Origin: Gammaproteobacteria bacterium
Lineage (GTDB): Bacteria > Pseudomonadota > Gammaproteobacteria > BMS3Bbin11
Assembly (NCBI GenBank): GCA_013150915.1
Contig: JAADJE010000012.1
Location: 27,820 to 91,819, forward strand
Direction: 5' to 3'
Length of the DNA stretch: 64,000 bases
The notes under the pieces are model-generated. The model was not told the origin of the DNA. It made no database searches and was given only the letters and a program-made list of their open reading frames with translations. This document shows, one piece after another, positions 7,593 to 56,666 of this stretch (positions within the stretch are counted from its first letter, which is position 1; each line of letters begins with the position of its first letter). A program made the translations under genes and the position numbers.

Positions 7593-8378
7593 TTATACCG
7601 AGACCTCTTCGCCTTCCCGCAGGGTCAGTATTTCGTGCCCCTCTGCGGTAACCAGGATTGTATGCTCCCATTGCGCAGACAGTTTGTGGTCACGGGTAAC
7701 TACCGACCAGCCGTCGGACAGCAGTTTTACATCTTTTTTCCCGGCATTGATCATTGGCTCGATGGTAAAAGTCATGCCTTCCTGTAATGTGATGCCTGAT
7801 CCCGCCTCACCATAATGGAGGATCTGTGGTTCTTCGTGGAATTCTCGTCCTATGCCATGGCCACAGTATTCACGGACAACAGAAAAACGATTTTTTTCGG
7901 CATGGTTCTGGATAGCATGGCCGATATCACCAAGTCGTGCGCCGGGCTTAACCAGGACGATGCCTTTTAGCATGCACTCTCGACTATTTTGTATCAGGCG
8001 TTGCGCGATTGTAGAGGGCTTGCCAACCGTAAACATCTGGCTGGTATCGCCGTGAAAACCATCCTTGATAACGGTAATGTCGATATTAATAATATCGCCT
8101 TTTTTTAGCGTCCGATCACCGGGTATACCATGACAGACCTGGTGGTTAAGCGAGGTGCAGATGGATTTTGGAAACCCGTGATAGTTCAGCGGAGCAGGAA
8201 TGGCACCCTGTTCCTCCACGATATATTTATGGCAGATTGTATCCAGCTCACCTGTACTAATCCCTACCTGGATAAAAGGTTCTATCATTTCCAGAACCTG
8301 TGCTGCAAGCCGGCCAGCTACCCGCATTTTTTCTGTTTCATCCGCTGTCTTGATAGAAATACTCATTGAAAAATCCAC
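7593..8378 (-). CDS. map: Methionine aminopeptidase type I
   Basis: 261 aa. Conserved MetAP-I metal ligands. Position upstream of glnD and divergent from rpsB. Confidence 0.92.
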   Translation of the reverse strand: MDFSMSISIKTADETEKMRVAGRLAAQVLEMIEPFIQVGISTGELDTICHKYIVEEQGAIPAPLNYHGFPKSICTSLNHQVCHGIPGDRTLKKGDIINIDITVIKDGFHGDTSQMFTVGKPSTIAQRLIQNSRECMLKGIVLVKPGARLGDIGHAIQNHAEKNRFSVVREYCGHGIGREFHEEPQILHYGEAGSGITLQEGMTFTIEPMINAGKKDVKLLSDGWSVVTRDHKLSAQWEHTILVTAEGHEILTLREGEEVSV

Positions 8379-8437
8379 AATATTCTTTTACAGCGGGGCA
8401 TTATAACCGGACTCAGGATAAAATAATGATATCGTTG

Positions 8438-8505
8438 CACTGCTGTCCCGTTAACCTGATCTTATTTTTCTGTCGTTGTTGTAGTGCTTGGGATGCAGGG
8501 AACCC
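8438..8505. repeat. Partial copy (one terminal inverted repeat plus ~50 bp) of MITE-like element family B; the complete copy is at 54655-54844
   Basis: GCACTGCTGTCCCGTTAACCTGATCTTATTTTCTGTCGTTGTTGTAGTGCTTGGGATGCAGGGAACCC is nearly identical to the reverse complement of 54771-54840. Confidence 0.8.
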
Positions 8506-8741
8506 ATTTATACCTGGAACTTTAGACTTGGAACTTGGAACTATGCCCCTTTTGTGCTATAACCGCGCCTCTTTTCAGGGGTTCTGAATTACGGACGGCC
8601 TGATTTCGAAATACGCTGTCATTTGATGACTTAACTAAAATGATCGTGGGAACACTAGCAGGGCCCGGGTGTTTGAGAGACTGTTTGTCTGTCAAACTGG
8701 CATTGCAACCCATGTGAATGTAACCCGAACGGAGATAGAAG

Positions 8742-9722
8742 ATGTCTAAGATTTCGCTTCGCGATATGCTGGAAGCTGGTGTTCATTTCGGCCACCGTAC
8801 ACGTTTCTGGTACCCCAAAATGCGCCCTTATATCTTTGGTGAGCGTAACCAGATCCATATCATTAATCTGGAAAAAACCCTGCCCCTGTTTGAGGAAGCC
8901 TGTAATTTTCTTGGCAAGATTGCGGCTAACGGTGGTAACGTCCTGTTCGTTGGCACCAAGCGCCAGGCAAGTAAAGTTATTCGTGAAGCAGCGATACGTT
9001 CTGCTTCACCCTATGTGGATCACCGCTGGTTGGGCGGTATGCTGACCAATTTCAAGACCGTACGTAATTCAATCAAACGCCTGAAGGAGCTGGATGAACT
9101 GTTTGAAAGTGGCCAGGCAGATAAGCTGATCAAAAAAGAACGGTTACGTGTCGAGCGTGAACGCACCAAGCTGGAGCGTTCCCTGTCCGGTATTAAAAAT
9201 ATGAATGGTCTGCCAGATGCACTCTTCATCATCGATGTGAAATATGAGTATATCGCCATAGCAGAAGCTAAAAAGCTTGGCATTCCTGTGGTTGCCGTGG
9301 TTGACACCAACTGTAAGCCAGAAGGTATCGATTACATTATTCCTGGCAATGATGATGCGATTCGCTCTATTCGTCTCTATGCTGATACGATTGCCGATGC
9401 CATTATTGAAGGACGCCATTCTGTTGCAACTGCCCCAGTGGTTGCAGCCTCTGATGACTATGTCGAAATGGATGATGCTAAGGCTGAGGCACTGATAGAG
9501 AAAGCGAAACCCTCCAGCAGTACGGTTAGCGAAGCAAAGAAAGCAGATGTGAGCAAAGCTGATTCTGAAGAAGTCACTGCGGATGCAGTGCCTGTTTCGG
9601 AGGAAGCAGCGGCAGTTAAAAAAGCGGTCAAGAAAAAGGTTGTGAAAAAGAAAGCGGTGAAGAAAAAGCCTGTAAAAAAGAAGGCTGTCAAAAAGGTGGC
9701 AGCGAGTAAGGACGACGCGTAA
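8742..9722 (+). CDS. rpsB: 30S ribosomal protein S2 with a lysine-rich C-terminal extension
   Basis: The N-terminal ~240 aa are canonical S2. Followed by tsf. The last ~85 aa are Ala/Val/Lys repeats ([23 protein letters not shown]). Confidence 0.92.
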
Positions 9723-38123: not shown

Positions 38124-38286
38124 GGGCACCTTTATTAATCCATGAATATTCATCTTGCATCCCAAATCGTCCATCTCTGCGTTAAGCATCTTCGCAATAG
38201 CCATGCTATTGCGTGCGATCCTTGTCTTGATATGAACAATTGTGGAATACAATCTGAGCTATCCAGAATTGATAGAGGTGCCCTTT
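38122..38286. repeat. MITE-like dispersed element family A, copy 1 (~165 bp, terminal inverted repeats AAGGGCACCT / AGGTGCCCTT), filling the whole sdhA-sdhB intergenic space
   Basis: Highly similar to 49889-50048 and partly to 41525-41705. The left terminal repeat overlaps the sdhA stop codon. The right terminal repeat ends 2 nt before the sdhB ATG. Confidence 0.8.
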
Positions 38287-44649: not shown

Positions 44650-46074
44650 ATGAAAAAGTTATTAATGCTACCCGCCCTGTTCCTGTTCATTTCATTTGCG
44701 ACAGTGACAGCTAATGCAAATGCATTACCCGATTTTGTACACCTGGTTGAAGAACAGGGTAAGGCAGTGGTTAATATAAGTACCAAGCAAAAATCAAAGT
44801 CTTTACAATCGGGGTCGGGAGAGTTACGTCTACCCGATCTGCCGCAAGACAGTCCTTTCTATGAATTCTTTGAGAAATTCTTTGGTCAGTTACCGCAGTC
44901 TCCACAGGGAACATACCCACATCCCAGTATTAGATCCCTCGGCTCAGGCTTTATTATTTCTGCAGATGGTTATGTGTTGACTTCTGCACATGTGGTAGAC
45001 AATGCTGATGAAATTGTTGTCCGCATGACAGACAGACGGGAAATGCTGGCAAAAGTAATCGGTACTGATAAACGCAGTGACGTTGCTTTGTTGAAAATTG
45101 AGGCAAAAAATTTGCCCTATTTGAAACCGGGTAAACCAGATGAACTAAAGGTTGGAGAATGGGTATTGGCAATCGGCTCACCCTTTGGTTTTGAGAATAC
45201 CGCGACGGCGGGTATTGTTTCTGCCAAGGGTCGAAGCCTGCCAAACGAAAATTATATTCCTTTCATTCAAACGGATGTGGCGATTAACCCGGGTAATTCG
45301 GGTGGTCCACTGTTCAATATGGATGGTGAGGTTGTAGGGATCAACGCCCAGATATACAGCCGTTCAGGCGGTTATATGGGGCTGGCGTTTTCTGTTCCTA
45401 TCGATTTAGCAATACAGGTTGCCGATCAACTGCGTGCTGGTGGGAAAGTTAAGCGTGGCTGGCTTGGCGTGACCATCCAGGATGTAAATCGTGATCTGGC
45501 TGAAGCCTTTGATATGGACAAACCTTTTGGTGCGCTGGTTTCATCTGTTCTTCCAGATAGTCCAGCATCAAAATCAGATTTACAGGTGCAGGATGTGATA
45601 GTTGAATACAACGGTAAACCCGTCAGACTTTCTTCAGATCTGCCGTTTTATGTTGGGCGCAGCAAGGTTGGGACAACTGCAACTTTAAAAGTTTTACGTG
45701 CTGGAAAATCACGAAATGTGAAAATAAGCATTGGTCAGCTCCCAGAATCAGACGTAGCTACTTTGAATACAAAAAAGCATAATTTGAAAAAAGACACACC
45801 CGATCTGCTCGGCATCTATGTGCGTGATTTATCCCGGGAGGAGAAAAAATTACTGGATCTGGATTATGGCGTTCTTGTCGTCCAGCTTAAAGCAAATTCA
45901 GCGGCGGCGAATGCAGGGATCAGAAAGGGTGATGTGCTTCTTTTGCTAAATAAGAAAAAGGTCAGGAATGCTGAGACGTACAAGGCCATTGCTGGATCAT
46001 TGAAGAAAGGCCGGCCTGCTGCAGTATTGGTAAGACGAGGCAATGGATCACAGTTTCTTGTGCTAAAACCATAG
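44650..46074 (+). CDS. degP: Periplasmic serine endoprotease DegP/MucD (HtrA family, two PDZ domains)
   Basis: Signal peptide starts at MKKLLMLPALFLF (ATG 44650). Catalytic triad motifs (TSAHVV, D, GNSGGPL). Two PDZ domains. Confidence 0.88.
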   Translation: MKKLLMLPALFLFISFATVTANANALPDFVHLVEEQGKAVVNISTKQKSKSLQSGSGELRLPDLPQDSPFYEFFEKFFGQLPQSPQGTYPHPSIRSLGSGFIISADGYVLTSAHVVDNADEIVVRMTDRREMLAKVIGTDKRSDVALLKIEAKNLPYLKPGKPDELKVGEWVLAIGSPFGFENTATAGIVSAKGRSLPNENYIPFIQTDVAINPGNSGGPLFNMDGEVVGINAQIYSRSGGYMGLAFSVPIDLAIQVADQLRAGGKVKRGWLGVTIQDVNRDLAEAFDMDKPFGALVSSVLPDSPASKSDLQVQDVIVEYNGKPVRLSSDLPFYVGRSKVGTTATLKVLRAGKSRNVKISIGQLPESDVATLNTKKHNLKKDTPDLLGIYVRDLSREEKKLLDLDYGVLVVQLKANSAAANAGIRKGDVLLLLNKKKVRNAETYKAIAGSLKKGRPAAVLVRRGNGSQFLVLKP

Positions 46075-46155
46075 GGTACCTCTATTAATTATTCTCCCGA
46101 GGGGAATCACTTTCCTCTCGGTGCCTTCAATAGCGTATAATTTGCGCTTTAATTT

Positions 46156-49205: not shown

Positions 49206-49911
49206 TGAAAAGATACAGAGGCTTCAGAAGTCACTGGACTATAATTTCAATTCCAGGCCAGAGTTGTTAATACGTGCATTAACACATAGAAGCCACGGCT
49301 CGGATAACTACGAAAGACTGGAATTCCTTGGAGACAGTCTACTGGGTTTTATCATTGCGGATACGATTTGTGAAAGGTTTCCCGATGCAGATGAGGGGCA
49401 ATTGACCCGATTGCGTGCGAACCTGGTCAGACAGGAAACTCTGGCAGAACTTGGTAGAGAATTAGATCTGGGGAGGTATCTTATTCTCGGTCCGGGTGCA
49501 CTGAAAAGCGGTGATCAGGGGCGAGACTCCGTTCTTTCTGATGTCGTAGAGGCAATTATCGGTGTCATCTATCTCGATGGAGGAATGCTGCCCTGTCGAC
49601 AATTTGTCACCCGGATATTTGCCGACAGACTTGCTTTGTGTGAACCGCATAAAATCCTTAAAGACCCGAAGACCCGCCTGCAGGAGTTTTTACAGCAACA
49701 ATCACAGAAACTCCCCGAATACACCATTCTCGATATAAGCGGTCCTCCACACAAGCAGTCATTCAAAGTGCAGTGTCTGATAGCAGAAGGCAAGCAAGTA
49801 TTCTGTGGGCGAGGTGCTAGCCGTCGTAAGGCTGAGCAGGATTCTGCTGAAAAGGCCTTACGGGCCATTTCTAAACAATCAGGGCTTTCGGGCACCTCTG
49901 TTAATCCATGA
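49183..49911 (+). CDS. rnc: Ribonuclease III
   Basis: RNase III signature (ERLEFLGDS) and a C-terminal dsRBD. GTG start overlapping the previous gene. The last ~7 codons are contributed by the terminal repeat of MITE A copy 2. Confidence 0.9.
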   Translation: MSKSHLGNEKIQRLQKSLDYNFNSRPELLIRALTHRSHGSDNYERLEFLGDSLLGFIIADTICERFPDADEGQLTRLRANLVRQETLAELGRELDLGRYLILGPGALKSGDQGRDSVLSDVVEAIIGVIYLDGGMLPCRQFVTRIFADRLALCEPHKILKDPKTRLQEFLQQQSQKLPEYTILDISGPPHKQSFKVQCLIAEGKQVFCGRGASRRKAEQDSAEKALRAISKQSGLSGTSVNP

Positions 49912-50048
49912 ATATTCAACTTCCATCCCAAATCGTCTCTCTCTGCGTTAAGAATCTTCGCAATAGCTAGCTATTACGTACGATCCTTGCCTTGATATGT
50001 ACAATTTGGAATGCAATCTGACCTATCCAGAATTAATAGAGGTGCCCC
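49889..50048. repeat. MITE-like dispersed element family A, copy 2, occupying the rnc-era intergenic space and ending immediately before the era ATG
   Basis: ~85% identical to 38122-38286 over ~160 bp. Terminal repeats GGGCACCTCT ... AGAGGTGCCC. Confidence 0.8.
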
Positions 50049-50049
50049 T

Positions 50050-50949
50050 ATGACAAAAGCTTTCCGCGCAGGTTTTATTGCCATACTGGGGCGACCAAAT
50101 GTAGGCAAGTCGACATTATTGAATCGCATCATAGGCAAGAAAATCAGCATTACATCGCCTAAGCCTCAGACCACACGGCATCGTTTACTGGGTATCTGTA
50201 CAACAGAAGAACATCAAATGGTTTTTGTGGATACGCCCGGGGTACATCTTGGTAGCAAACGCTATATCAACCAGATCATGAATAAGACCGCCGCGAATGC
50301 TCTGATAGGGGTTGATGTTACGCTACTGATGATCACATCTGAAGGGTGGAAGGAAGAGGACCATCATGCCCTGAAGTTGGCACAGCAGGAAAAAATGAAT
50401 CTGATAGTGTTGATTAACAAAATTGATAAATTGAAAAATAAGAATCAACTCCTGCCATTGATTGAATTCACATCACAACTACATGAATTTAAAGAGATTA
50501 TCCCCATTTCCTCTGCCTATGGAACTAATGTTCAATCATTAATGGATGTTTTACCTGAGTATCTTCCGGAAAGTCCTCTCCTGTTTCCTGAAGGGCAGAC
50601 GACAGATAAAGGTGCTCAATTTATCATTTCAGAAACTATAAGGGAGAAACTTTTTCGCCAACTGCGCGATGAAATTCCTTATACACTTGCGGTAGAAATC
50701 CAGCAGTTAAAGATGACGGAGTCACTGATACGGGCAGAGACTATCATCTGGGTAGAAAAAGAGAGTCAAAAAGGCATAATCATTGGTAAGAAAGGTGAAA
50801 AATTACGTACTGTCGGAACGCATGCCAGGGAGGAACTGGAGTCCTATTTTGAACGAAAAGTATTTCTACAGCTTTGGGTGAAAGTGAGAGAAAACTGGTC
50901 TGATGATGCAGTAATGTTACGCTCAATTGGATATATAGAGGAAGAATGA
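50050..50949 (+). CDS. era: GTPase Era
   Basis: N-terminus AGFIAILGRPNVGKSTLLN (G1 motif) beginning at ATG 50050. C-terminal KH domain. Confidence 0.92.
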   Translation: MTKAFRAGFIAILGRPNVGKSTLLNRIIGKKISITSPKPQTTRHRLLGICTTEEHQMVFVDTPGVHLGSKRYINQIMNKTAANALIGVDVTLLMITSEGWKEEDHHALKLAQQEKMNLIVLINKIDKLKNKNQLLPLIEFTSQLHEFKEIIPISSAYGTNVQSLMDVLPEYLPESPLLFPEGQTTDKGAQFIISETIREKLFRQLRDEIPYTLAVEIQQLKMTESLIRAETIIWVEKESQKGIIIGKKGEKLRTVGTHAREELESYFERKVFLQLWVKVRENWSDDAVMLRSIGYIEEE

Positions 50950-51683: not shown

Positions 51684-51697
51684 GTCAAAATCATGGA

Positions 51698-51804
51698 GAC
51701 CAAAGACCAAAGACCAAAGACCAAAGACCAAAGACCAAAGACCAAAGACCAAAGACCAAAGACCAAAGACACCAAAGACCAAAGACCAAAGACCAAAGAC
51801 CAAA
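51698..51804. repeat. Heptanucleotide tandem repeat (GACCAAA)x15; the eleventh unit carries a 2-nt insertion (GACACCAAA)
   Basis: Direct reading of the sequence: ten perfect units, one 9-nt variant, then four perfect units, between recO and pdxJ. Confidence 0.95.
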
Positions 51805-51830
51805 GGCTAAATAACGTAAACCGTAAACCC

Positions 51831-52964: not shown

Positions 52965-54599
52965 TTATAGCTTGATACCCGGGATATTCTCAAGAGTTAC
53001 CTTATCGATTTGTTCAGGGTTCATGTATTCATCAGCGTATGCCTGAAAAATATTTTTATCGACAAATAGCTGAAATAGATCTGGATCGATATGATTGTCT
53101 TCACACATGAGGCCAAGGATACGAAGTGCATTGGACAGTGTTTTCCCTTTCTTATAGGGTCGGTCACAGGCTGTCAGTGCCTCAAAAATATCGGCTATTC
53201 CCATGACACGAGCCTGCACTGATATCTGATCTCGAGTCAGGCCTTTCGGGTAGCCTTTGCCATCCACACGTTCGTGATGTCCACCGGCAAATTCTGGAAC
53301 ATTACTGAGGTGTTTGGGAAAGGGTAGAGACTCCAGCATATTGATTGTGGTGACGATATGATGATTAATGATCTCTCTTTCTTCGGGAGTTAATGTTCCT
53401 TTTGCAATGGTCAGGTTATAAACTTCATTGTCGCTCAATAAGGGTCGTGTCTCAGATTGGTGTTTCCAGCTAGTGCGGCTGATTCCCCGTATTCTTTTTA
53501 TGTCCGCATCCGCCATGAACTCTCCACCGGTATTGTGTGCACGGACAAAGCTGAGGTCATCGTCAAGTTTAGTAATCATTGCCCCTAATTCCATCGTAAT
53601 ATTTTTATCCATTTCGGCCGTATTGTATGCATTTTCCATAAGGTGTTTTCGGATCAGTGTTATTTCCGCATCACGTTTTAGTAATTCAAAGCGTGTGCTT
53701 ATTTCGGTGATTCGATCATGGATTGTTTCAAGTTTCGTTCCCTTGTCGACGACATATTCCGGTGTGGTAATTTTACCGCAATCATGCAGCCAGGCGGCAA
53801 TCTCAAGTTCGTATCGTTCTTCGTCTGTCATATGAAAAGATTTAAATGGTCCTGTCTCGGACTCATGTGCTGCATCAGCCAGCATCATAGTGAGTACTGG
53901 AACACGTCGGCAATGGCCAGCGGTGTAGGGAGATTTATCATCGATGGCTGTCGCAACTAGCTGGATAATCGATTCCAGCAAGTTCTTTTGTTCGTCAATT
54001 AGTTGCTGGTTCGTCAGGGCAATTGCCGCTTGTGAGGCAAGTGACTCAACTAATTCCTGCGCAGTGCGCGAAAATTTAATTATTTCACCTGTCTTTTCTG
54101 ACAAGGCATTAATCAACTGCAGTGCTCCAATTACATCCCCGGTGTGGTTTTTCATCGGGATGGAGAGAATGGATTGAGGTCGATAGCCCAGTTTTTCGGC
54201 ATATTTACGCATTCCAGCAAAGTCAAAACCGTCGTGATGATAAACATCTTCAATATTGACGGTTTCTCCTGAATTTATACTGTACGAAATGATATTCTGG
54301 TGATTCTCTGATCCATTCGGATTCAACAAAGGAATAGCGGGTAGAGTAACCTCCTTCGTGCTGATGCCGCCTTCGTGGATCCCGAGTGAATCAGTGTGCA
54401 TTGTTTCCATTTTTATCATCCTGTTGCCTTTATCATCCTCAATAACTGAATACAGGCTGCCAGCATCAGCATTACTGAGTTCTTTTGCACCAATAAGGAT
54501 AGATTCTAGCAGGCGGGTAGTCTCTTTTTCTGCTGACAGAGAGATACCGATTTCAGTCAATTTTCTGATTCGTTCAGCAAGTTTTTCTTCACCTTCCAT
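52965..54599 (-). CDS. GAF-domain sensor fused to an HD-GYP c-di-GMP phosphodiesterase domain
   Basis: 544 aa. HD motif (AAWLHDCGKITTP) and GYP motif (HHERVDGKGYPKGL). The N-terminal ~200 aa are GAF-like. Confidence 0.8.
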   Translation of the reverse strand: MEGEEKLAERIRKLTEIGISLSAEKETTRLLESILIGAKELSNADAGSLYSVIEDDKGNRMIKMETMHTDSLGIHEGGISTKEVTLPAIPLLNPNGSENHQNIISYSINSGETVNIEDVYHHDGFDFAGMRKYAEKLGYRPQSILSIPMKNHTGDVIGALQLINALSEKTGEIIKFSRTAQELVESLASQAAIALTNQQLIDEQKNLLESIIQLVATAIDDKSPYTAGHCRRVPVLTMMLADAAHESETGPFKSFHMTDEERYELEIAAWLHDCGKITTPEYVVDKGTKLETIHDRITEISTRFELLKRDAEITLIRKHLMENAYNTAEMDKNITMELGAMITKLDDDLSFVRAHNTGGEFMADADIKRIRGISRTSWKHQSETRPLLSDNEVYNLTIAKGTLTPEEREIINHHIVTTINMLESLPFPKHLSNVPEFAGGHHERVDGKGYPKGLTRDQISVQARVMGIADIFEALTACDRPYKKGKTLSNALRILGLMCEDNHIDPDLFQLFVDKNIFQAYADEYMNPEQIDKVTLENIPGIKL

Positions 54600-54654
54600 C
54601 GAGATATCTCCATTAGATACAGGTTAGAAATGAGATTGTTCATATTCAAGTATA

Positions 54655-54844
54655 CTGAGACACTGCTGTCCCGTTAACGCCACATCGTCATGCCGGGCTT
54701 GACCCCCGGTATCCAGTAAGTCGTTGAAACCGCTGGATTCCGGCCTGCGCCGGAATGACAACCCCATTGGGTTCCCTGCATCCCAAGCACTACGACAACG
54801 ACAGCAAAATAAGATCAGGTTAACGGGACAGCCGTGACACTGAG
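54655..54844. repeat. Complete MITE-like element family B (~190 bp) with ~24-bp terminal inverted repeats (CTGAGACACTGCTGTCCCGTTAAC ... GTTAACGGGACAGCCGTGACACTGAG) and an internal palindrome
   Basis: Terminal inverted repeats read directly from the sequence. Internal perfect palindrome ATTCCGGCCTGCGCCGGAAT at 54737-54756. Partial copy at 8438-8505. Confidence 0.8.
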
Positions 54845-54984
54845 ATTATATCTATTCTCGCAGATATTAAGGGCCGCTCTATTAATTCATGAATAATAGC
54901 GGTGTTTTTTAGGGTGAAATTATAATTAATCGTCCCCATATCTCTGCTAATATTAGATTCTAAACACTGTACAGGAGTATAACT

Positions 54985-55377
54985 ATGGGTGAAGCGGCTT
55001 TTCAGACTGAAATTACGGGCGACATGATGTCAATTACAGATACTGCACTTGAAAAAATGGGCGAACTGCTTGAGCAGGTGGAAGAAGATGTTGCTGGCAT
55101 AAGAGTATTTATCCACGGAGGCGGCTGTAGCGGTCTTTCCTATGGTATGACGTATGCCGAGGAAAAACTTGAATCTGATAGCCAGCTTGGTAACGATGAC
55201 TGCAATATACTTGTTGATCCTATCGCACTTGGCTACCTGAAGGGTTGTGAAATCGACTTTCGTGAGGGGCCAACAGGCGCCAGTTTTGTTTTTAATAATG
55301 TGTTCGAGTCAGTGGGTGGTTCTGGTGCCTGTGGTGGTGGCGGTGGTGGTTGCGGTGCCGGCGGTTGTGGCGGCTAA
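54985..55377 (+). CDS. HesB/IscA-fold (A-type carrier-like) protein with an atypical Gly/Cys-rich C-terminal tail
   Basis: IRVFIHGGGCSGLSYG and ILVDPIALGYLKGCEIDF match the IscA/HesB core. The C-terminus is ...FNNVFESVGGSGACGGGGGGCGAGGCGG instead of the usual CGCG-x-SF ending. Confidence 0.6.
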   Translation: MGEAAFQTEITGDMMSITDTALEKMGELLEQVEEDVAGIRVFIHGGGCSGLSYGMTYAEEKLESDSQLGNDDCNILVDPIALGYLKGCEIDFREGPTGASFVFNNVFESVGGSGACGGGGGGCGAGGCGG

Positions 55378-56666
55378 ATCAAGTTAACAAACGACCCTTT
55401 AACACGAACAGGCACAGCGTATTACTTATATCTCCGCCTGAAAGCTATCGTATTCAGCCCTATGTCAGGGCCGCCCTTTCACTCGACCTGGAGATTAATA
55501 TTGCTTCCGAGGGTGAATGGGCTATTTCTTCGCCACATTCGGCAGGTATTGATGTTCCCCTCCAGGATCATCAGTCCGCGCTTCCCATCCTGTTAGAGTT
55601 GTTCAAACAGCGGCAATACGATGCGGTTATTGGAACCGATGACAGTACACTCGAGCTTGCCGCTAAGCTCGCTGAAAAAACCGGTCTGCAGCAGAACCCC
55701 CCCACGGCTGTTCGACTGGCCAGACGTAAAGATTTATCACGACTTTGTCTGCATCAGGCAGGTATACGGGTGCCAGCATTTTTGGTCGTGGAGGCAAGTG
55801 AGCAACAATTGTTTGACGAACCGTATTTCGGTTTTCCCTGTGTCATCAAGCCCCTGGCATTATCGGCCAGCAGGGGGGTGATACGCGCCAATACGTGCGA
55901 GAGTCTTAATCGAGGAGTGAAGCGAAGTCTTAGAATTATTTCAGAACAGACTGATTTATATGAAAAAAACCATCTTCTTCTGGAGCAGTTTATTGATGGA
56001 AGGGAGTTTGCTATCGAGGGGATATTGTCTGACAGGCAGCTCGATATACTCGCTATCTTTGATAAACCTGATCCGATGGAGGGGCCCTATTTTGAAGAGA
56101 CCTATTACATTTCTCCCGCAAGGATTTCGCCGAATGAAAGGCAAATTCTAATAGAAACAGTACAAAATGCCTGTCGGGCATTTGGTCTGGTTACCGGGCC
56201 AGTCCATGCTGAATGCCGCCTTAATAAAGAGGGTGCATGGCTGATAGAGATGGCAGCAAGGACGATCGGTGGTCTTTGTAGTCGTTTGCTGACTTTTGGT
56301 ACGGGATATTCACTTGAACAGCTGGTGCTTGCGAATGCTATTGGTCTGGAATTGCCACAGGAACTTAAGGACGGTGCGGCAGGTGTTCTTATGCTACCGA
56401 CAGAAACTGCCGGTATCCTGCGCCGTGTTGAGGGCGTTATGAGGGCTGAAAAGGTGCCATACATTGACGATATTGAGATTAGTCTACGTGAAGGATACCG
56501 CGTATCACCCTTGCCCGAAGGGACGAGTTATCTGGGCTTTGTTTTTTCTACAGCGCCAGATTCAGACAAAGTTGAACAGGCATTGAGGGATGCCTATGCA
56601 CTACTGAACCCTGTGATTGCACCCTACTGGCCAGTTTCTATGAGCAAGAAAGAGGCCAGCGACTAA
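55350..56666 (+). CDS. ATP-grasp family ligase (COG3919-like). TTG start overlaps the upstream HesB-like gene by 13-28 nt.
   Basis: FPCVIKPLALSASRGV (ATP-binding Lys), LLEQFIDGREFAIEG and IEMAARTIGG motifs of the ATP-grasp fold. No ATG in frame, so TTG at 55350 or 55365 is the candidate start. Confidence 0.7.
   Translation: MRCRRLWRLNQVNKRPFNTNRHSVLLISPPESYRIQPYVRAALSLDLEINIASEGEWAISSPHSAGIDVPLQDHQSALPILLELFKQRQYDAVIGTDDSTLELAAKLAEKTGLQQNPPTAVRLARRKDLSRLCLHQAGIRVPAFLVVEASEQQLFDEPYFGFPCVIKPLALSASRGVIRANTCESLNRGVKRSLRIISEQTDLYEKNHLLLEQFIDGREFAIEGILSDRQLDILAIFDKPDPMEGPYFEETYYISPARISPNERQILIETVQNACRAFGLVTGPVHAECRLNKEGAWLIEMAARTIGGLCSRLLTFGTGYSLEQLVLANAIGLELPQELKDGAAGVLMLPTETAGILRRVEGVMRAEKVPYIDDIEISLREGYRVSPLPEGTSYLGFVFSTAPDSDKVEQALRDAYALLNPVIAPYWPVSMSKKEASD

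Follow-up and report, generated by a model that had tools for sequence, protein, structure and literature searches.

A recently inserted 176-bp MITE, very probably the non-autonomous partner of an ISAbe18-like IS4-family insertion sequence, upstream of an HD-GYP gene in a gammaproteobacterium

Bacterial MITEs, exemplified by the Correia elements of Neisseria and by the IS231-derived MIC231 cassettes, which are non-autonomous members of the IS4 family, are short, non-coding elements bounded by the repeats of an insertion sequence (IS). Such elements carry a target duplication, occur in multiple copies at intergenic positions, differ in their presence from strain to strain and in some cases supply promoter elements. 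For the IS4 family, the mechanistic models are IS10 and IS50 (of Tn10 and Tn5), which also produce a 9-bp target duplication. The described IS that lies closest to the element reported here is ISAbe18 from Acinetobacter, an IS4-family member of 1269 bp flanked by 9-bp direct repeats (PMC6863613), whose insertion has been reported to switch on a downstream gene regardless of orientation (PMC8552602). Its terminal inverted repeat (TIR) is CACTGCTGTCCCATAGTTT, which starts with CACTGCTGTCCC.

The window analysed here is a stretch of 64,000 nucleotides of gammaproteobacterial DNA, of which ~5.5 kb (8.6%) is intergenic, and all sites of two small repeat families, A and B, fall within this intergenic fraction. 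The complete family-B element, hereafter MITE B, is located in the 385-bp spacer between the divergent starts of an HD-GYP gene and a HesB-like gene, 61 bp upstream of the HD-GYP start codon. The features of the window are collected in Table 1. With regard to the gene on the other side of the spacer, the HesB-like gene overlaps the start of the following ATP-grasp/L-amino-acid-ligase gene, and the C-terminal tail of its Fe-S_biosyn protein is rich in Gly and Cys (GGSGACGGGGGGCGAGGCGG). To judge by this tail, which resembles the core of a modified peptide, the two products could be a substrate–ligase pair.

Table 1. Coordinates of the features in the 64-kb window, and alignment of the empty and filled sites
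Feature	Position	Strand	Details
GAF/HD-GYP gene	52965-54599	-	Pfam GAF and HD_5
HesB-like gene	54985-55377	+	Pfam Fe-S_biosyn
ATP-grasp gene downstream of the HesB-like gene	55350-56666		Pfam LAL_C2
MITE B	54661-54836	.	176 bp, non-coding, non-autonomous
Left target-site duplication copy	54652-54660	.	ATACTGAGA, 9 bp, abuts the left TIR
Left TIR of MITE B	54661-54678	+	CACTGCTGTCCCGTTAAC, 18 bp
Right TIR of MITE B	54819-54836	-	GTTAACGGGACAGCCGTG, 17/18 vs the consensus
Right target-site duplication copy	54837-54845	.	ACACTGAGA, 8/9 vs the left copy
Hairpin module 1	54687-54716	.	GTCATGCCGGG-cttgacc-CCCGGTATCCAG; stem in both folds; conserved in MITEs of other genera
Hairpin module 2	54733-54759	.	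CTGGATTCCGGC-ctgc-GCCGGAATGAC; the 'palindrome' of the earlier note; stem in both folds
Truncated MITE B copy	8438-8506	-	right-hand TIR plus 51 bp, reverse orientation
Hybrid promoter-like site facing the HD-GYP gene	54649-54677	-	consensus match only
Hybrid promoter-like site facing map	8426-8454	-	TTAACG, 17 nt, TATCAT; consensus match only
Family-A end fragment	54871-54896	+	GGGCCGCTCTATTAATTCATGAATAA; weak hairpin then T-run
Empty-site alignment, metagenome contig			...CAAGT ATACTGAGA TTATATC...
Filled-site alignment, window			...CAAGT ATACTGAGA [CACTGCTG...CAGCCGTG] ACACTGAGA TTATATC...

An earlier note on this DNA, made from the letters alone, had described an element of ~190 bp at 54655–54844 with TIRs of 24 bp. 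The element and its inverted repeats are real, and MITE B has a target duplication, further copies at other places and, in other genomes, a partner IS that is autonomous. Its size and edges were nevertheless corrected to those given in Table 1, and the TIR was shortened to 18 bp, the extra outer bases belonging to a 9-bp direct duplication. A repeat search of the window returned the inverted arms as 18 nt with 94% complementarity, and the 9-bp register of the duplication was set by re-scoring the flanks against the 18-bp repeat across the family. The duplication and the right TIR each carry a single mismatch. An alternative delimitation, in which the ends are 20 bp long with an outer dinucleotide that varies and the duplication is 5 bp, was discarded upon comparison with ISAbe18 and flank re-scoring, which assigned the 'variable' bases to the 9-bp duplication.

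The core 13-mer of the repeat, CTGTCCCGTTAAC, is matched three times in the 64-kb window (at 8443 and 54666 on the forward strand, and at 54819 on the reverse strand) against 0.04 matches expected by chance, so its recurrence is not fortuitous. No ORF of at least 50 residues was found inside 54661–54836, and a tblastn search with the 383-residue transposase of the family found no such gene in the 64-kb window. The internal palindrome at 54737–54756, which had been taken as a perfect one of 20 bp, consists of an 8-bp stem with a 4-nt loop, ATTCCGGC-CTGC-GCCGGAAT, in which 16 of the 20 positions are palindromic.

The same locus was recovered without the element from a JGI metagenome (3300003886, contig Ga0063293_10001606; L001, later L132), which was found through an exact-protein look-up with the HesB-like protein. 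Of the other look-ups of this kind, the one with frr was matched, and those with map (two start choices), rpsB, pyrH, recO and a 94-residue Iron_traffic protein returned no match. The flanks of the contig are 98.1–98.6% identical to those of the window on both sides. In the alignment, the contig lacks exactly 185 bp, corresponding to the 176 bp of MITE B plus 9 bp, and carries ATACTGAGA once. Comparison of the locus in a related strain, which the earlier note had proposed as a check, thus revealed an empty site with a single copy of the target. Since a near-identical strain is free of the element at exactly that spot, the insertion at 54661 is recent and took place in the lineage of the window strain.

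The second family-B site of the window had been described as a 68-bp partial copy at 8438–8505. It is indeed a truncated copy, which comprises 69 nt of the right-hand end in opposite orientation, as the repeat search of the window aligned 8438–8506 with the reverse complement of 54768–54836 (69 nt, 96%). The true start of map was read from the sequence as the ATG at 8366 (MSISIKTADE...), and the fragment, whose terminal repeat points towards the gene, lies ~70 bp upstream of this codon. Three relatives (L125, L126 and L127), which are near-identical to the window in the conserved part of the map–rpsB spacer, are without this copy and have at that position (AAGTTTC)5–8 followed by an inverted (GAAACTT)3, with a short spacer in between. 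The copy is strain-specific with respect to these three relatives. In the simplest history, MITE B would have inserted at the target ATATCGTTG in the map–rpsB spacer, and a later deletion would have taken away 107 bp from the left of the MITE, along with the second copy of the duplication and most of the heptamer array.

A second, independent right-end remnant of MITE B, with ~75 bp kept, was observed in L120 (~178–250) and L121 (~2522–2594). It ends at most 10 bp from where the 8438–8506 fragment ends, and either coincidence or a preferred breakpoint beside the small GGGAACCCAATGGGGTT hairpin may account for the similar endpoint. As to the heptamer arrays, these differ in copy number between near-identical strains. 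That of the map–rpsB spacer starts at 2962 in L125, at 2941 in L126 and at 62 in L127, and is mostly deleted in the window. A second array, located between recO and pdxJ, consists of 15 (AGACCAA) units in the window (51697–51805) and of ~8 in L132 (6953–~7005). Such arrays could act in promoter regions as contingency repeats that are prone to slippage.

The wider family was scanned in the GTDB species-representative genomes with CACNGCTGTCCCGTTAAC as the query, which matched more than 118 stretches, almost all of them from gammaproteobacterial metagenome-assembled genomes (MAGs). The matches listed include Sedimenticola, Thiohalobacter, Sulfuriflexus, Thiogranum, Ectothiorhodospiraceae and Candidatus Poriferihabitaceae, as well as one MAG from the very metagenome that yielded the empty site. 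Within the fetched loci, 26 TIR-bounded elements were delimited, and the 9-bp duplication is perfect in 14 of these and has one mismatch in seven more. As read from the flank scoring, 11 of the 14 perfect duplications start with AT and seven end with AT, which suggests that the family has a symmetrical AT...AT target.

Five of the 26 elements are ISs of 1271–1274 bp, each with one ORF of 383 residues. This ORF matches Pfam DUF4372 and DDE_Tnp_1, scores 265–272 bits against the IS4-family transposase model NF033592 of NCBIfam (cut-off 115) and carries the IS4-family signature Y-2-R-3-E-6-K (YKARWQVELFFKWIK). The 18-bp left TIR of MITE B is identical to both ends of 1274-bp copies of this IS (L002, L009, L069 and L086). 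Among the matches listed, the transposase gene is present, either whole or cut by a contig end, in ~20 loci, and the remaining loci consist of short elements of 140–353 bp or of lone ends at contig ends. Many of the listed matches to the family ends are no more than ~200 bp away from where a fetched stretch stops. Separately, a degenerate copy of 1066 bp with a perfect 9-bp duplication, which is intermediate between an IS and a MITE, was observed in a plasmid of Agarilytica rhodophyticola (L131, 601–1666), where nothing is annotated.

Among annotated plasmids, ISAbe18 is the closest named relative of this IS. The two transposases share 50% amino acid identity over 97% of the protein, together with the DUF4372 plus DDE_Tnp_1 architecture, and the elements are of similar length (1274 and 1269 bp). 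The first 12 TIR bases of ISAbe18 are identical to those of MITE B, and both elements have a 9-bp target duplication (PMC6863613). They differ in the inner six TIR bases, which are GTTAAC in the window family and ATAGTT in ISAbe18, and in their hosts, which here are uncultured marine gammaproteobacteria rather than Acinetobacter; moreover, the window element has only 176 bp and is devoid of a transposase. With IS10 and IS50, the partner IS shares a DDE transposase with the Y-2-R-3-E-6-K signature and a 9-bp, symmetrical-looking target, but no similarity in the end sequences. A cut-and-paste reaction through hairpins is assumed for the family of MITE B by analogy. Compared with the Correia and MIC231 elements, MITE B belongs to another sequence family, and its interior is made up of a pair of hairpin modules in inverted orientation whose sequence bears no relation to that of the parent IS.

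Similarity between MITE B and the 1274-bp IS is confined to the 18-bp ends. A search of the interior for the similarity expected of a deletion derivative found none, and the MITE B subfamily is thus not traced to this IS by simple deletion. Elsewhere in the family, an internally deleted IS of 353 bp (L105) speaks for an origin of short elements by deletion. The left 100 bp constitute a module that is found in MITEs of other genera: it is 88% identical over 102 bp in L018 and was also detected in L022, L052 and L066, and a MITE in L089 is 74% identical to MITE B over its full length. This left part consists of the two hairpin modules, which are inverted copies of one motif of ~27 nt. The motif recurs in 10 of 131 loci among the matches listed (L014, L052, L058, L085, L089, L091, L093, L094, L112 and L123) with the consensus GTCAT[GT]CCGG-loop-CCGG[AT]ATCCAG. 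In L112, L085 and L058, for example, more than 1 kb separates copies of the module from the closest perfect hit of the repeat core. A literature search with peptide-like translations of this module returned nothing.

The right 75 bp of MITE B are rarer than the left module, and a 20-mer from this part was used for a scan of metagenomes. In all, few copies of this very subfamily were found, two in the window and four in the metagenomes. Two of the latter are complete copies at unrelated loci, one in L123 (96%), which has its own duplication (AAAATCAAC/AAAATCAAT), and one in L124 (93%), with decayed ends. Their flanks differ from those of the window, and they are not segmental duplications. L120, L123 and L124 belong to assembly VAPH01 (GCA_006240795.1), which also contains L125 from a close relative of the window organism. 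The earlier note had stated that a chance palindrome would be indicated by a family B present at two places only, with ends unstructured in other copies; in fact, a target duplication flanks the L123 copy and further TIR-bounded elements as well. The presence of whole-length copies at unrelated loci indicates that MITE B moved as a MITE and did not decay in place.

Taken together, MITE B is very probably the non-autonomous partner of an ISAbe18-like IS of the IS4 family, which inserted recently and is most likely a tolerated passenger. It is ordinary mobile DNA and not a new kind of system. Mobilisation would occur in trans, through recognition of the 18-bp TIRs by the 383-residue DDE transposase of a 1274-bp IS located elsewhere in the genome. 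By analogy with IS10 and IS50, the transposase would excise MITE B and insert it at a target cut with a 9-bp stagger, whose repair would give rise to the observed 9-bp duplication.

A role of the element in gene expression had been proposed in the earlier note, namely that it provides the promoter or leader of the HesB-like/ATP-grasp operon. This was not borne out, as the 147 bp that adjoin the operon are the same in the empty-site contig save for one substitution and a 3-bp indel, and a promoter scan of the spacer found no promoter-like site on the forward strand facing the operon. Any effect of MITE B would concern the HD-GYP gene rather than the HesB-like operon, and would act through promoter spacing or through a structured leader of greater length. 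A perfect TATAAT (54851–54846, reverse strand) is now on the far side of MITE B from the HD-GYP gene. If this hexamer is the native −10 box, MITE B would be part of a long, strongly folded leader, with a calculated fold of −84 kcal/mol.

The best-surviving alternative to a tolerated passenger maintains that the MITE copies are not neutral and that the TTAACG of the TIR pairs with a −10 box in the flank to form hybrid promoters, which drive the HD-GYP gene, for a cyclic-di-GMP phosphodiesterase, and, at the truncated copy, map, and for which the copies are retained, as they restore or change expression. Sites of this kind face the adjoining gene at two of the three MITE ends of the window, compared with 9 of 148 ends (6%) across the loci listed. 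At the HD-GYP gene, a −35 TTAACG in the left TIR is followed after a 17-nt spacer by a −10 TATACT in the flank (54677–54649), and the same scan found no equivalent in the empty allele. The TTAACG-17-TATCAT site at map (8454–8426) is the sole promoter-like site found in the map–rpsB spacer. Furthermore, the related ISAbe18 has been reported to activate the gene downstream of its insertion in both orientations (PMC8552602).

Against this, both sites are 9-of-12 matches to the consensus, and shuffled sequence gives as many (1.8 and 1.0 expected). Across all loci among the matches listed, a −10 box with at least five of six matches is present at a spacer of 16–18 nt in 9 of 148 element ends but at 19–21 nt in 14 of 148, which fits a preference for AT-rich targets better than selection. 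The full-length copy in L123, 49 bp from a gene start, is without such a −10 box, and the ISAbe18 TIR is without a TTAACG box. We therefore consider it unlikely that the copies are maintained as promoters, and a regulatory role of MITE B in general is improbable. As a general property of the family, the hybrid promoter was rejected, since the 9 of 148 ends are no more than at neighbouring offsets. Equally doubtful is a broader scenario in which the MITE B family would be a mobile promoter cassette, whose TTAACG boxes form hybrid promoters in AT-rich targets and have here rewired the HD-GYP gene and the essential map gene, and in which, together with the displaced hypervariable heptamer arrays, the spacers would be strain-specific expression switches.

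Far less probable than a passenger that moved as a MITE is a remnant of a full-length IS that decayed in place. Internally deleted ISs of the family do exist, such as one of 353 bp in L105 (4789–5141), which keeps remnants of the transposase C-terminus and is an intermediate between IS and MITE. Nonetheless, the 176-bp structure occurs over its whole length at the two unrelated loci L123 and L124, its left module is common to MITEs of other genera and nothing in its interior resembles the IS, which makes decay in place very unlikely. Finally, an immobile structure, be it a gene for a structured RNA, a host element of the REP type or a palindrome that arose by chance in a divergent promoter region, is hardly credible: both strands do fold far better than shuffles (z = −5.1 and −4.1) and the interior holds two conserved hairpin modules, but most of the fold stability stems from pairing of the terminal repeats, Rfam 15 gave no match at the gathering threshold or at E ≤ 1 in 54550–55020 and 8350–8760, the site shows presence/absence polymorphism with a precise 9-bp duplication, and an IS that codes for a transposase has identical ends.

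Next to MITE B, the earlier note had placed a left-end fragment of family A at 54871–54903 and had read the co-localisation of two families as an insertion hot spot. Family A comprises two complete 160-bp elements with ends GGGCACCTCTATTAAT, at 38124–38283 and 49890–50047, which are 92% identical, and end fragments at 46074–46089 and 54871–54886. Its end motif, GGGCNNCTNTNTTAAT, is matched six times in the window, including 54871–54886, against 0.38 expected. The fragment beside MITE B is genuine and extends from 54871 to ~54896: its GGGCCGCTCTATTAAT fits the terminal motif of family A, it agrees with the left end of the full copies at ~22 of 26 positions, and it aligns with the end of the copy at 50030–50050 over 21 nt with 86% identity. 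An intrinsic terminator at 54871–54910, a hairpin followed by T6, was also considered and rejected, as the terminator scan returned no sites and the fold is of −11.3 kcal/mol with z = −1.5.

The two full family-A copies have no obvious target duplication, and no family-A empty site was found in the contig L001/L132; we infer mobility for this family. One family-A element lies between the RNase III gene (rnc) and era, where it extends over the final 22 bp of the listed RNase III ORF, and is shared with L132. The copies at 49890–50047 and 38124–38283 are both situated within operon-like strings of genes. The fragment at 54871 and the copy at 49890–50047 are present in the empty-site contig, and since this strain has the fragment but not MITE B, family A is older than MITE B at this spacer. 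The two families thus arrived at different times, and the hot spot is unsupported. Moreover, given ~5.5 kb of intergenic DNA, two family-B insertions and four spacers that bear family A, the chance of one coincidence is roughly 0.2.

At the strain level, both MITE B insertions mark recent transposition within the lineage of the window strain. If the insertion beside the HD-GYP gene has changed its expression, cyclic-di-GMP signalling would here have been rewired naturally by a MITE. The IS/MITE family occurs widely across MAGs of marine and hydrothermal gammaproteobacteria, and its value is for annotation: the known ends (CACTGCTGTCCCGTTAAC) and the 9-bp duplication help to mask repeats, interpret contig breaks and tell strains apart.
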